Below are positions 107-63,596 of a stretch of DNA of 64,000 bases, piece after piece. Made by a program: the position numbers and the translations under genes. Numbering within the stretch: the stretch's first letter is position 1; each line of letters begins with the position of its first letter. The notes under the pieces were generated by a model. The model searched no databases and was not told the origin of the DNA. It saw only the letters and a program-made list of their open reading frames with translations. The DNA comes from Eledone cirrhosa (Eukaryota), in contig OZ024760.1 of NCBI GenBank assembly GCA_964016885.1, positions 22,134,001 to 22,198,000 of the forward strand, written 5' to 3'.

Positions 107-322
107 ATAATAGAAAAAAACGAGAGAGTGTCGTTTACATATGACCCCTATGGGTCACATTGAGCCAATCCTTTGCGAAACGCGCGTAACAGGTCGATAG
201 GCAATAAATATTTGTCATAATGTAAACGAAACTTCCTCGTTTTTTTCTATTATATACACTTCGCCTGTGCGTAGAGTGCTTGATGTGGTTCCAACACTAG
301 TATTTTATCATACTAGCTACAC
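107..322 (+). mobile_element. Penelope-like pLTR fragment, family I, 5'-truncated with short inverted arm; 3' half of HHR
   Basis: Arms ~107-141 and ~214-255 are inverted. GCGAAACGCGCGTA gives GAAA plus a palindromic stem III plus GUA. Homologous to 23270-23420; flanked by (TA)n. Confidence 0.6.
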
Positions 323-374
323 TATATATATATATATATATATATATATTATATATATATATATATATATATAA

Positions 375-640
375 TGATTAAAAGTTTAACAAGGTTCAAT
401 GAATTAATCAATGAATAAAGTTTCACAACAGATTAGAAGCATCCTACAGCGGGTTTTCTGGAGTTATTAATATTACTTCAAAATATTAATAAATATAGAC
501 ATTCATGTGATCAAATATATTTTATTATACATATTTCAGAGGTACTGAGCTATTTCAACAGTACGTCCTCATCAGATAAAATAAGTTGATGCTTGACATA
601 CCTTGACTACGTTGATGGTTAAAATTCAGTCATGGCAGTC
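375..640 (-). mobile_element. Penelope-like pLTR unit, family A (single arm)
   Basis: Between (TA)n tracts; carries an HHR; homologous to 41655-42048. Confidence 0.75.
518..583 (-). ncRNA. Type I hammerhead ribozyme (family A)
   Basis: Minus strand reads UAUUUUAU-CUGAUGA-GGACGUACUG..CAGUACCUCU-GAAA-U-AUGU-AUA^-AUAAAAUA, with an 8-bp stem I and a 10-position stem II with one C.C mismatch. Confidence 0.85.
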
Positions 641-654
641 ATATATGTATATAT

Positions 655-868
655 AACGAAGGAAATGTGGTAAGGAACCAGGTGAACCATAACGCACCAA
701 AGTACTCAATACTTAGGGTAATAGAGTGGGTAATAGGAACGAGTAGGACCCCGACGGCTGAGCTCAAGCCGTTTCGACGGCTAATTCTGGACTCCAGAAT
801 TAGCCGTCTGTCCAGAATTAGCCGTCGAAACGGCTTGAGCTCAGCCGTTGGGGTCCTACTCGTTCCTA
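655..868 (-). mobile_element. Family C fold-back unit (half-HHR pLTR)
   Basis: GAA-ACGGC-UUGAGCUCA-GCCGU-C^ occurs in both arms; inversion at CTGGACTCCAG; (TA)n flanks. Confidence 0.75.
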
Positions 869-1084
869 TATATATATATATAAACACACACACACACTGT
901 GTGTGTGTGTGTGTGTGTGTGTGTGTGTGTGTGTGTGTGTGTGTGTGTGTACATACATAGTCACCCCATTCCACTTGTATAACTGCCACATGTTAAATTC
1001 CATTCTGTTAAAGTTTATTTATCTCTGAGGAAAGAATTTCCATGATTATGTCTGAAAAACCATTCACATCCGTTATTTATGTTG

Positions 1085-2370
1085 ATAACGAAGACGGTGA
1101 GAGCGGCGATGACGGTGGCGATGACGGTGACGATGATGGTGGCGATGACGGTGACGATGTTGGTGCCGATGATGGCGGCGATGACGGTGATGATGATAAA
1201 GCCGATGATGATGAAGACGATGGTGACGATGATGGCGGCGATGACGGTGATGATGATAAAGCCGATGATGGTGACGATGATGGGGGCGATGACGGTGATG
1301 ATGATAATGCCGATGATGATGGTGATGGCGATGATGGTGACGATGACGGTTATGATGATAATGCCGATGATGATAAAGCCGATGATGGTGACGATGATGG
1401 TGGCGATGATAAAGCCGATGAGGGTGACGATGATGGTGGCGATGACGGTGATGATGATAATGCCGATGATGATGATAGTGACGATGATGGCGGCGATGAC
1501 GGTTATGATGATAATGCCGATGATGGTGATGACAACAGTGCAGATGATGATGACGTTAAGGATGATGTTGTTGAGTGGTTGTCATTCATTGTTGATGTAG
1601 TAGTTGTTGTAGTACTAGTAGTAATAGTGGCAGTAGTAGTAGTAGTAGTAGTAGTAGTAGTAGTTGTAGTAGTAGTAGTAGTTGTAGTAGTAGTAGTAGT
1701 AGCAGTAGTAGTAGTAGTAGTTGTAGTAGTAGTAGTAGTAATAGTGGCAGTAGTAGTAGTAGTAATAGTGGCAGTAGTAGTAGTAGTAGTTGTAGTAGTA
1801 GTAGTAGTAGTAGTAGTAGTAGCAGTAGTAGTAGTTGTAGTAGTAGTTGTAGTAGTAGCAGCAGTAGTAGTAGTAGTAGTAGTCGTACTAGTAGTAATAG
1901 TGGCAGTAGTAGTCGTAGTTACAGCAGCAGCAGCAGTTATAGTAGTAGTAGTTGTAGTACTAGTAGTAATAGTGGCAGTAATAGTAGTAGTTACAGCAGC
2001 AGCAGCAGTAGTAGTAGCAGTAGTAGTAGCAGTAGTAGTAGTAGCAGTCTCCTCAGCATCACCATCATCATCGTCAACAACAACAACAACAACAACAACA
2101 ACATAAGCAGCAACAACAACAACAACAGCAACAACAACAGTAACAACAACAACAACAACAACAACAACAGTAACAACAACAACAACAACAGCAACAGCAA
2201 CAACACAACAGCAACAGCAACAACAGCAACAACAACAGCAACAACAGCAACAACAACAACAGCAGTAACAACAACAACAACAGCCACAACACCAACACCA
2301 ACAACAACACCAACAACAGCAACAGCAACAACAACAACAGCAGTAACAACAACAACAACAACAGTAGCAA
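1085..2370. repeat. Compound trinucleotide repeats (GAT/GAC/GGC)n, (GTA)n, (CAA/CAG)n
   Basis: Seen directly; source of the poly-D/poly-V ORF 1042-2106. Confidence 0.95.
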
Positions 2371-60295: not shown

Positions 60296-60586
60296 GTGAA
60301 GGCACGTGGCCTAGTGGTAATTGTGTTGCACTTATGATCATAATATCGTGGTTCAATTCCTAGACTGGCGTGTGTGTTGTGTTCTTGAGCAAAACACTTC
60401 ATTTCTCATAGCTCCAGTATACTCAACTGAAAACGAGTACCAGCAATAGCTGGGGGTTTAACACTACGATGGACTGGAGTCCTGTCCAGGAGGGAGTGTT
60501 GTACCCTCAGTCACTTCACGCCACGGAATCCGGGATAAGCACCGGCTTGATGAGACTCTGGGCTCGCGACAGACTTTAGACTTTTA
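60296..60586 (+). mobile_element. Full-length tRNA-derived SINE S2
   Basis: A-box TGGCCTAGTGG, B-box GGTTCAATTCC, CORE-like GTTGTGTTCTTGAGCAAAACACT, V-like GATGGACTGGAGTCCTGTCCAGG, and an ACTTT-repeat tail. Confidence 0.85.
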
Positions 60587-60849
60587 ATAATTTCTCATGA
60601 TATTACCGCTAATATTTCATGGTTGCGGAGAAAAGATAGATTAAATGGGATATTGCTATATGTGTAGTAGCAGCAACTGTCTGAAGTATGTTAGTAGTAT
60701 TTTAATGTCGGGTGTTAATTACATTTTTAATAAACTCGTAAGAGACAAAACATTGGTTGAAACAACTTCAGATCTTGTATGGAAAGCCTAGTTCTTGCTT
60801 CGTGTTGTACGGATTTATGTTTTGGTGCTGTTAAATGTTATATATCGGT

Positions 60850-61345
60850 GAAATTACCACGAAAATTCTAGCATTTGCAAACACAGAGGAAGCTTTTTTT
60901 ACCTTATGTGCTATAGAAGTTCAGAAGAATCCTAGTTTTTCCTTCTTGTTTTCCGAACTTGCGTCATGGTGATCTTTGATATTATTAATTGTTGAGAGTA
61001 AGCATGAAAAATCCTAGCATTTGTAAACCCGAAGGGAGGTGTTTCTTTTCTTTATGTGCTATAGAAGTTCGGTAGATATCTTGTTTTCACTTTTTGTTTT
61101 CCGACATTGCGTTTTAATGATGTTGGAGATTATAAATTGTTGGGAGTATGCAAGAAAAATCCTAGCATTTGAAAACACAAAGGAAACTATTTTTTCCTTA
61201 TGTGCTATAGAAGTTCGGAAGAAACCTAGTTTTTGCTTCCTGTCTTGGTGATGTTGGGTATTATAAATTGTTGAGAGTAACCATGAAAAATTTAGCATTT
61301 GTAAACACCAAGGAATTTTTTTTTTTAGTGCTTTACAAGTTCTGA
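60850..61345. repeat. Degenerate ~140-bp tandem repeat (~4 copies)
   Basis: Recurring GAAAAATCCTAGCATTTG...TTATGTGCTATAGAAGTTC. Confidence 0.75.
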
Positions 61346-63348
61346 GGAAATGTCACGCTGTGTATTTCCTTGAAAATTGTAATGATTCTGCCTGGGTTAG
61401 CTATTGAAAGAGACTGGTTTGTCATGTCCGCATTAGAAGAAGAAGTTTTCAAGGTCTCTCCCCACTCCCTCTCTATATCTCCCTCTCCCCCTCTCTCTCT
61501 CCCCCTCTCTCTCTCCCCCTCTCTCTCTGTTACTAGAATTAGAACATGTCGGCTGGTTGTATGATGTGATATATCGAGGTGCAGAAGAATGACGCCAGAA
61601 TCTAAGACGATTTTTGTAGGAAGAAAGGAGTGGCAATTCTGATGGTAGGGTTTGTCACATGTTGAGGAGTTTTAGGGCGGATAGAAATATGTATATACAT
61701 ACATACACACAGATACACACATATATATACACATATATATATATATACATATATATACACATATATATATATACACATATATATATATATATATATATAT
61801 ATATATATATATAGATATAGATATATATAGATATATATACATATACATATATATATATATATATATAGATATATAGATATATATACATATATACATACAC
61901 ATATATATATATATATATATATAGATATATATACATATATACATACATATATATACATATATACACACATATATATATATATATACATATATGCATACAT
62001 ACATATATACATACATACATATATACATACATACATAAATACACTGATACATATATATATATACATAGATATATTTATATACATATACATATATATATAT
62101 ATATATATACATATATACATAGATATATTTATATATATATACATATATATATATACATATATATATATACATATATAGATATATACATACATATATATAT
62201 ACATATACACATACATATATACATACATATATATACATATACATATATATATATATATACATATATACATATATATACACATATATATGTATACACATAT
62301 ATACATATACACACACATACATATACACACACATACACATATATATATATATATACATATACACTTCCACCGCCACCTCCGCCTACACCTCTACCAGTGT
62401 CACCACCACCACCACCACCACTAACGCTAACACTGCTACTACCAGTTCCACCGCCGCCCCCACCACCACCAACACCGCCACCAGCACCAACACCGCCACC
62501 CCCCACCCCCACCCCACCGCACCCCCATCCCCACCCCCACCACCACCAGCGCCACCAGCACCAACACCGCCACCCGTTCCTCAATGGTTGACACATGTTT
62601 GATTGTAAATCTTTCGAGTGTTTCTCTATCTCTCCGCTAGCCTCCCCCCTCTCTCTCTCTATCTCACCCATCTCTTCCTCTCTATCTCCATCTCACCCTA
62701 TCTCTCCCTCCCCCTCTCTCTCTCTCCATTACCCCCTATCTCCCCCTCTCTTTCCTTTTCTGTATTCCTCTCACCATATATATATATATTTTGTTATTGT
62801 TTTTGTTTTCTGTTTTAACTTCTGTGTGTGTGTGTGTGTGTGTGTGTGTGTGTGTGTGTGTGTGTGTGTGTGACGCTGGTATTGGTGGTGGTGGTGGAGG
62901 TGGAAGTGATGGTAGCATTGGTGGAGGTAACAGTAGTGTGTGTGTGTGGGGGGGGGGGGGGAGAGAGGAAGAGAGTGCTAAAGTTGTAAACTCATAAATG
63001 TCAACGATATGGCTGCTCCAGAGACTATGCCAGGGGACCATTCATTGTACTCAATACACACACGATAGGGAGTCGCGTATGTACTATATAGTGAGGTGTA
63101 AAAATATACTTCAATTAATTATGAGAAGCCATGCAATTAATAAACAAATTCTTCCTCTAGGGTTACGCAAAATCTAAAAATAACAAACAGGGGAGATAAT
63201 TCCAATGAGATAATTAAATTGTAATTTCTTTTAAACAAATGCTGAAGAAGCCATTAGATTATTATTCCTGAGAGGGTCTTGGAGGCGTATTCCCCCCCAA
63301 ACCGCTAGAAGGAATGTTTGAAGACTCTGTCCCCCCACGACTCTTTCA

Positions 63349-63416
63349 GGAATAAGGCTCTTTCCTGATGATTTTTTTTTCGAATGAAACAGTTCTAGTC
63401 CTGTAGAAGCCTTTCC
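63349..63416 (+). ncRNA. Type I hammerhead ribozyme (family D)
   Basis: AAGGC..UUC-CUGAUGA-U9CGAAU-GAA-ACAG-UUCUAGUC-CUGU-A^-GAAGCCUU; stem II is weak; the tail to ~63520 matches 33790-33890. Confidence 0.65.
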
Positions 63417-63596
63417 TATTTTTCTATATTAAAGTTGTTGTTTACACTCTAATAATGTATTGAGTACCTTACTTACTGCGGGTAGCCACTCCCCACCCCC
63501 CCGATTGAACCTGGGATGCACATACATACACATATATATACCGTTTATATGACTATGTCTCTATAAATGAACGCGGGTGTTTAAAGGGTAATATAT

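Follow-up and report, generated by a model that had tools for sequence, protein, structure and literature searches.

In the 64,000-nt stretch of the Eledone cirrhosa genome analysed here (the window; GenBank assembly GCA_964016885.1, contig OZ024760.1, positions 22,134,001 to 22,198,000 of the forward strand), short repeats carry a small bulged RNA helix that also occurs in full-length Penelope-like retrotransposons of the Hydra clade. Judged from sequence, this motif is real and clade-wide. Full-length elements usually hold two copies of it (helix 1 and helix 2), and their two kinds of insertion end each lie a short, fixed distance before one of these copies. The helix is probably a binding site for the reverse transcriptase (RT) of the element that sets both internal start sites of reverse transcription.

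The window belongs to a 3.0-Gb assembly, has a G+C content of 32%, and is masked as tandem repeat over about half its length. Between its (TA)n tracts lie short repeat units, many of which are fold-back structures with one short and one long arm. An earlier note, made from the letters of the window alone, had described a closing helix with a family-specific interior in the 3′ tail of hammerhead ribozyme units (families A, B, C, D, G, H and I, and an orphan tail), and all nine stretches that it cited were found in place on the + strand. The closing helix is indeed common to them, but the description was incomplete, as a constant 2-nt bulge on the 3′ side, starting with U, is shared as well. The motif thus consists of RCUC, a covarying upper stem of at least two pairs, a variable loop (3 to ~60 nt), the 2-nt U-first bulge, and GAGY-RC. 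The H and I copies of the window are mutated, most genomic copies being bulged; the bulged form was the commonest among the 14 other H copies shown and 29 other I copies. Enrichment was examined in 854 kb, made up of the window and 79 further 10-kb stretches that were fetched, including two next to the window. With a 2-nt bulge starting with U, the descriptor gave 134 matches versus 39, 31 and 30 in three block-wise dinucleotide shuffles, these matches being repeat copies (mostly of family C, with a few double counts) and not independent events. Bulges of 1, 3 and 4 nt were not enriched (26, 14 and 17 matches versus 22–45 in shuffled sequence), and the bulge-free descriptor (140 versus 110–130) was not counted as enriched.

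The earlier note had regarded the units as otherwise unrelated, which proved wrong: families A, B, C, D and G (5/7) join related Hydra-clade open reading frames (ORFs), running into Hydra-type ORF starts in other genomic copies, and B- and C-type units were also found directly 3′ of such ORFs, unbroken. The window units represent 3′ ends, truncated on the 5′ side, of Hydra-clade families that are related to each other. Families H and I have the same anatomy as the others, but neither a parent ORF nor a helix 2 was found for them. Upstream extension of family B reached another endonuclease (locus L034), matching the Hydra-clade motifs of PMC8557442, and family E contains a 713-codon open frame (709 from the first Met) with YRDD and a C-terminal YIG motif in 9/9 fetched loci. 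Because Pfam gave no match for family E or the Hydra-type ORFs, the domain assignment is based on motifs and homologs.

According to PMC8557442, the hallmarks of the Hydra clade are a single ORF with RT plus a GIY-YIG endonuclease at the C end, RWK present, GxKF/Y not conserved, DKG replaced by DKT, a CxCx5C linker, no CCHH, CxxC and CxH around conserved E and N, a hammerhead in the pseudo-long terminal repeat, and insertion into (TA)n. In the ORFs described here, RWK occurs in family G and its conservative variant RWR in E, C, B and A; GxK[FY] was not seen in E, C and B; and SDKT occurs in E, C and B (DKT being missing from 1/9 family E copies), with DKG in the four Neptune- and Poseidon-type ORFs of the same genome. 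The linker and endonuclease cysteines were checked in family E, the examined A, B, C, D and G frames ending before this region: all nine family E ORFs have the CxCx5C linker, no cysteine pair within the GIY-YIG core, and CDLC and CKH near the C end. Predicted hammerhead cores are canonical in A, B, D, G, H and I and variant in C and E, and copy ends fall in (TA)n. The tandem period of family C (3,542 bp) and the size of family E (~3.2 kb) do not follow the generally smaller size of the clade (<3 kb), which PMC8557442 gives as a tendency and not as diagnostic. The B, C, D and E ORFs share 38–55% identity; they group as a single branch within 28 metagenome homologs, separate from the Neptune and Poseidon types (support of 100 in the Shimodaira–Hasegawa-like approximate likelihood ratio test, SH-aLRT, of a quick tree that excluded the A and G frames as too short and held no published Hydra proteins). 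By their motifs, the elements here are new members of a known clade. As side observations, the family C hammerhead core (L180–L204) resembles the U3-A8 variant described in the accessible part of PMC4209133, and that of family E (L150–L158) has an A at position 4.

Full-length junctions read, in order, hammerhead, short end, helix 1, spacer, long end, helix 2 and AUG. Short arms stop 6–8 nt before helix 1 and long arms 6–9 nt before helix 2, so that the tail (~65–150 nt here) equals the helix-to-helix interval. Both ends are discrete, and the element side starts with TA or AT, matching the (TA)n target, except at the short end of family D. In family E, where two helix copies lie between hammerhead and AUG and the second is closed by a UUCG loop, 56 ends lay in (TA)n among 83 matches; of these, 21 were 6 nt before helix 1 (a further 9 lay no more than 4 nt from this position) and 23 were 6 nt before helix 2. 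Family C had 41 ends at 8 nt before helix 1 and 55 at 6 nt before helix 2 (99 in (TA)n among 144 matches), family B had 22 at 7 nt and 39 at 9 nt, respectively (72 among 83), and family D had 8 at 6 nt before helix 1, 17 at 9 nt before the helix-2 position, and 4 more at 6 nt (36 among 61). These loci were fetched partly by tail queries, which biases the counts but not the positions. Moreover, contigs from a sequencing run that may stem from the source sample (X1) break into (TA)n at both sites (115 and 143 contigs), as do single contigs for each site from a run of another study (X6); no RNA holder was among the sequencing runs listed.

The presence of helix 2 beyond the long end was predicted from family E, and it was found with a Hydra-type ORF start in family C (497 pattern matches, some listed twice, versus 0 in the control; 23/25 loci, including four duplicates), family A (36 matches; 9/10 loci), family G (9 matches; 6/9 loci, several mutated) and family B (2 loci), and also in two further families (L153 and L081). 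Its distance from the AUG ranges from ~38 to 112 nt in this genome. The single tail helix per unit of the earlier note is real as helix 1; helix 2, which lies just past the ends of the truncated copies, had gone unseen, since 5′-truncated units such as those of the window leave helix 1 as the only visible copy. Separately, a partial-tandem hammerhead unit (L130:1270-2605) with no stop-free stretch longer than 73 codons has retained both helices, of which the second shows a compensatory lower-stem change, and is a candidate non-autonomous passenger of Hydra elements. Each unit of a 615-nt tandem array (L052:491-3600 and 3850-9200) contains two or more helices and lacks a canonical hammerhead, this array adjoining a 310-nt hammerhead array, and a 556-nt hammerhead array at L057 and L080 is retrozyme-like.

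Conservation of the motif was examined beyond this genome. A protein search yielded 347 homologs, and an alignment of 20 retrieved 78 metagenome loci and 20 loci from metagenome-assembled genomes (MAGs). Contigs with Hydra-type retrotransposons that are deposited as bacterial MAGs or symbionts (L293–L312) are probably host DNA, and the MAG loci presumably reflect host contamination. Among these 98 Hydra-type foreign loci, 48 had 150 nt before the ORF and formed 33 clusters. With anchors that ignore the upper stem, the motif was found in 25 of the 33 non-redundant 5′ regions (18 with two copies, 7 with one; marine metagenomes and MAGs), compared with 2/315 ORF-interior windows, and its positions cluster at 34–70 and 93–137 nt before the ORF. 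Of second copies entering TA-rich flank, 13/17 end 4–13 nt before a helix (these being related families, not independent cases). By eye, the published consensi Hydra-2_Amil, Hydra-1_Ajap (two copies before the AUG) and Hydra-2_Ajap, from the accessible part of the PMC8557442 supplement, carry the full motif, which on these consensi is conserved in coral and sea-cucumber elements. For 21 word matches in the Naiad and Chlamys files of the same accessible part, no 5′ partner was seen by eye, and no relative was found in viral contigs.

The upper stem of the foreign copies covaries. When read with a 2-nt bulge, its first three pairs formed in 39/43, 32/43 and 24/33 cases, compared with at most 22/43 at other offsets, and the mutual information of these pairs (0.75–0.96 bits) was equalled in 0/2000 permutations; three other offsets gave p values of 0.001–0.014 at much lower mutual information. 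A MAFFT alignment of 48 mixed-length motifs lost the register and was discarded in favour of a 19-sequence in-register subset (18 foreign sequences and one from the window), from which a covariance model of 35 positions was built; being chosen for register, these sequences make the model favour clean cases. Pairs were 97.7% paired with 25 two-sided changes among 133 cells in the 19 selected rows, and 97.6% paired with 102 among 583 cells in 89 model-fitted rows, the shuffle controls for these counts ignoring relatedness. In 309 kb, the model gave 98 matches at E≤0.05, of which 91 were on the coding strand. Across the 89 rows, the bulge was UU in 59, UC in 20 and UA in 10, and the 3′ flank was ACU in 86 and GCU in 3, leaving the bulged U and the 3′ GAGY-RCU face nearly invariant. 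The earlier note had proposed such a model of the tails as a check, and pairing was kept, with two-sided changes across families. Scanning its nine sites recovered eight, five of them weakly (E<0.002 for C, G and the orphan tail, 0.09–1.4 for the rest), and missed H. Flanks and loops did not align across families.

The units and helix copies of the window are the following:
110..322, + strand: family I fold-back unit with short arm, 3′ half of the hammerhead (GAAAC at 177) and long arm with tail, in (TA)n
258..277, + strand: helix 1 of family I, mutated; the commonest genomic form has a UGC/GCA upper stem and a UA bulge
704..727, − strand: helix 1 of family C
2855..3054, + strand: family C fold-back unit, the 3′ end of a Hydra-clade element, with hammerhead 3′ half at 2935-2957
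2983..3006, + strand: helix 1 of family C with a UACU/AGUA upper stem and a UU bulge, 8 nt beyond the end of the short arm
3189..3584, + strand: family B fold-back unit; its type I hammerhead has its core at 3398 and a predicted cleavage after 3446
3502..3521, + strand: helix 1 of family B with a UC bulge, 7 nt beyond the end of the short arm
7876..7939, + strand: helix 1 of family H, long loop, mutated; a UU bulge is common in the 14 other copies shown
13640..13659, + strand: helix 1 of a family B subfamily
15646..15666, + strand: helix 1 of family G
23710..23733, + strand: helix 1 of family C
26909, 45297, 46308, 57386, 57548 and 58994, + strand: further family C helix copies
42533 and 55015, − strand: further family C helix copies
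33709..33891, + strand: family D fold-back unit with hammerhead 3′ half at 33783-33802
33830..33848, + strand: helix 1 of family D
39493..39512, + strand: helix 1 of the orphan tail, hammerhead absent upstream
41659..42046, + strand: family A fold-back unit; its type I hammerhead has its core at 41847 and a predicted cleavage after 41897
41958..41984, + strand: helix 1 of family A
42697..42974, + strand: family G fold-back unit with degenerate hammerhead at 42827-42874
42917..42937, + strand: helix 1 of family G, GCUC/GAGC form, UA bulge
49994..50039, + strand: helix 1 of family E, absent from the earlier note; the family has intact 709-codon ORFs elsewhere in the genome
50509..50528, − strand: helix 1 of a family B subfamily
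53169..53191, + strand: further helix copy without family label, absent from the earlier note
57811..57853, − strand: further helix copy in a fold-back unit, absent from the earlier note
63446..63465, + strand: helix 1 of a D-like copy with damaged upper stem; hammerhead core at 63365

A 22-nt word across the family D helix (33830..33848) has 9,702 exact occurrences in the genome, versus 0 for the control. As had been proposed, the helix lies downstream of the hammerhead cleavage site, namely 25–69 nt 3′ of the predicted cut in the copies that allowed a measurement (25 nt in C, 27 and 40 in D, 42 in G, 55 in B, 60 in A and 69 in I), and within the tail that the short inverted arm lacks, which was borne out by end mapping and by an inverted-repeat survey: in 99 asymmetric inverted repeats, many of them unrelated to these elements, the helix, where present, mostly starts 5–11 nt into the tail. 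The position of the helix is fixed relative to the insertion ends, not to the cleavage site. The tail at 39493 has no hammerhead upstream, in line with its description as an orphan, but is otherwise a regular helix copy. Conversely, hammerhead cores without such a helix occur in window families at 50165 (+ strand) and 37365-37873 and in several others in a random sample, and the helix is not a feature of every hammerhead unit. These two repeat families (50165-50419, + strand, and 37365-37873) have discrete tails of ~62 and 25–35 nt without a bulged helix. An abundant repeat of at least 370 nt with no hammerhead seen (10239-10610, 24940-25311 and 58113-58458) has an unbulged ACUC/GAGU hairpin at its end, separated from (TA)n by ~11 nt. 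A fragment at 59256-59654 (+ strand) resembles the C end of an RTE-type long interspersed element (LINE) protein.

General tools were of limited use on the window. A repeat finder and an ORF list were swamped by (TA)n, a strict hammerhead finder returned 20 hammerheads and missed many units, and a second finder returned 66, 3 of them with the motif; as the latter missed most A, B, C and D units and counted short arms and tandem arrays, it did not serve as an enrichment test. The best 150 of 588 Rfam matches on the window were microsatellite or fold-back noise below the gathering score, and in three foreign loci, each holding two copies, the motif was matched by no Rfam 15 family.

The earlier note had suggested a cis-acting signal for RT binding, template boundary or 3′ processing. 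Covariation, the fixed end distance and the wider conservation support such a signal, and RT binding or start setting fits best, while 3′ processing found no support. According to the accessible part of PMC11167929, the RT of a Poseidon element starts in vitro at two internal sense-RNA positions, which delimit the tail, and depends on RNA located 3′ of them; a protein dimer is predicted there, and both strands are cut and extended. For the elements described here, the RT-endonuclease protein would recognise the bulge and the 3′ GAGY-RCU face, and its active site would hold the UA-rich strand immediately 5′ of the helix. (TA)n would then be nicked by the endonuclease, the new 3′ end would pair with 1–4 nt of the UA-rich strand, and copying would proceed upstream; as copying would run upstream of the bound helix, the helix holding the enzyme would be left out of the insertion. 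A start before helix 2 would give the long arm with helix 1 in its tail, and a start before helix 1 the short arm. More speculatively, one start per strand of the symmetric (TA)n might yield the head-to-head fold-back with unequal arms. Tentatively, the two 20–25-nt helices might even load two RT-endonuclease molecules per RNA, each measuring 6–9 nt, so that both nicked (TA)n strands are primed from one template, a refinement that we consider rather doubtful.

A number of observations weigh against the helix as a start-setting RT-binding site. Eight of the 33 foreign 5′ regions lack the anchored motif, and 7/33 regions also scored on the reverse strand, which reflects the self-complementary lower stem. 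The other four of the 17 foreign ends lie at 66 and 84 nt (two) or have no scored helix (two), and among the six new consensi, inspected by eye in the accessible part of the PMC8557442 supplement, Crog and Obim have variants only and Hydra-1_Amil none. Family D carries a reduced, unbulged 4-bp hairpin at the helix-2 position (70 matches; 10/10 loci), yet forms long ends. Folding likewise fails to single out the acting strand, and the helix is not dominant by folding energy: the lower stem was part of the minimum-energy fold in 34/44 sense and 30/44 antisense cases, ensemble probabilities at six junctions ranged from 0.00 to 0.92 in sense and were higher in antisense for families E and B, and G-U outnumbered A-C pairs by only 8 to 2, a weak lean to sense from the model-fitted alignment. 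In the predicted fold of one junction (L151), the 5′ strand of helix 1 can also pair with the 3′ strand of helix 2, an alternative pairing that could act as a switch.

Alternatively, the helices might be template boundaries on antisense RNA, where the enzyme would copy toward the helix and stop 6–9 nt before reaching it, in the manner of telomerase at its boundary element. Either strand can form the lower stem, which is predicted to be more stable in antisense for E and B; the accessible part of PMC3846280 argues for an antisense template from head-to-head palindromes, and a stem-loop sets the template boundary in DRT10 and telomerase (accessible part of 10.1101/2025.10.16.682844). However, the ends share TA with the target, as priming predicts, the copying of long arms would need to pass helix 1 without stopping and end only at helix 2, the sole Penelope-like element examined in vitro initiates at the tail ends of the sense RNA (accessible part of PMC11167929), and the G-U pairs lean, if weakly, to sense. 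We therefore regard the antisense boundary as unlikely.

Two further explanations appear slightly less probable still. The helices, which lie ~35–140 nt before the AUG on a fragment that would be uncapped after hammerhead cleavage, might act in translation or its feedback control, and the clustered foreign positions (34–70 and 93–137 nt before the ORF) agree with this. It leaves the fixed end-helix distances unexplained, however, while the distance from helix 2 to the AUG varies from ~38 to 112 nt, and the L130 unit keeps both helices without a stop-free stretch longer than 73 codons. Translation control could nevertheless be a second role of the helices. Just as improbable is a signal read as DNA, namely a cDNA hairpin or an inverted site for the GIY-YIG endonuclease that is cut 6–9 nt away at insertion resolution. 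PMC8557442 ascribes tails to endonuclease-mediated resolution, and the accessible part of PMC11167929 cites a Drosophila virilis Penelope endonuclease that needs the tail for recognition. Half-site spacing, however, varies from 8 to >60 nt with compensatory changes, excluding a fixed double-stranded site, and helix 2 is absent from the inserted long arm and thus unreadable in product DNA unless the copy first extends beyond it. Finally, the families do form one branch with real shared ancestry, but a functionless motif shared by descent only is very improbable and largely refuted by covariation, since flanks and loops are unalignable across families, upper stems change on both sides (25/133 and 102/583 cells), and coral and sea-cucumber elements keep the motif.

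Other Penelope-like clades were considered as carriers and rejected. A genome search with the Pfam GIY-YIG domain found mostly Neptune-type (DKG, Cx2-5CxxC) and a few Poseidon-type elements, which do not carry the motif: it was absent from the Neptune- and Poseidon-type junctions examined, hammerhead-helix units near such elements are separate insertions, and model matches in these loci fall by position inside inserted units or are weak. In their own right, two Neptune-type families (L120, L116, L132; window 14704-14818) have ACUC and a GUGU/ACAC hairpin 9–10 nt beyond the short end; this may be a comparable signal peculiar to that clade. Within this one genome (L120–L159), three Neptune-type, one Poseidon-type (L159, with tandem 900-codon frames) and several Hydra-type families have long or intact ORFs, and the elements are inserted in the (TA)n flanks of one another.

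That a stem-loop may recruit the RT is an idea already known for other retroelements. Stem-loops in the 3′ tail do so in stringent LINEs and their short interspersed elements (SINEs), as does the R2 3′ untranslated region; in each case, otherwise divergent copies share a small RNA structure close to where target-primed reverse transcription begins. Those structures lie upstream of the start and are copied into the insertion, whereas the helix here lies downstream, is left out, and occurs twice. The boundary helix of telomerase RNA and DRT10 (accessible part of 10.1101/2025.10.16.682844) shares the short fixed distance from the template edge, and the RTs belong to the same broad lineage as those of Penelope-like elements; that boundary lies 5′ of the template and marks a stop, whereas the helix here is 3′ on the sense RNA and would mark a start.

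Closest to the elements described here are those of the Hydra clade in PMC8557442, with the same C-terminal GIY-YIG ORF, DKT, CxCx5C, lack of CCHH, hammerhead, (TA)n targets, tail and inverted truncated copies; ours are somewhat larger than 3 kb, with tails of ~65–150 nt instead of 30–40. The accessible text of that study mentions no stem-loop besides the hammerhead and the selenocysteine insertion sequence (SECIS), although three of its six new consensi carry the motif. The green anole Poseidon element PAc, as given in the accessible part of PMC11167929, has the same two internal starts bounding the tail 3′ of the hammerhead, the same need for RNA 3′ of the starts, and AT-rich targets. It differs in clade, in having the site inside the ORF, and in starting within one AC-rich stem-loop, whereas the motif here lies upstream of the AUG, is not AC-rich and has the ends outside it; no conserved, duplicated motif is reported in that part. 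By eye, the PAc template in its Methods has a short CUC/GAG hairpin without a U bulge a few bases past the +111–118 start window, which is a lead only. Non-long-terminal-repeat retrozymes (accessible parts of PMC7229834 and 10.64898/2026.07.22.740005) have the same short type I hammerhead units linked to Penelope elements, but are non-coding tandem repeats, whereas 5/7 window families are truncated ends of coding elements; a retrozyme identity was thus rejected for A, B, C, D and G, which continue into ORFs in other copies. The earlier note knew of no description of the stem-loop, and literature searches, the PMC8557442 text and Rfam likewise yielded none of a duplicated bulged helix at a fixed end distance, which Repbase or Dfam could mention; nor is the helix described in the accessible parts of PMC4209133, PMC7229834, PMC13282606 or the retrozyme preprint 10.64898/2026.07.22.740005.

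PMC8557442 states the choice of internal starts, the optional tail and the unequal inverted arms as open questions, and the accessible part of PMC11167929 partly answers the choice of start site for one Poseidon element. A covarying, duplicated helix at a fixed end distance opens this start-site question to point-mutation and spacer-length experiments, for which the genome holds intact ORFs. The 35-position model in turn marks the boundaries and the clade of very abundant unclassified repeats, and the helix offers a point of comparison for telomerase-related RTs, marking a stop there and, as proposed, a start here. If the two helices do load two RT-endonuclease molecules, this one RNA ruler would account for the Penelope tail, the inverted arms of unequal length and the targeting of microsatellites, and the helix would be a portable tag that chooses the start of target-primed reverse transcription inside any RNA.

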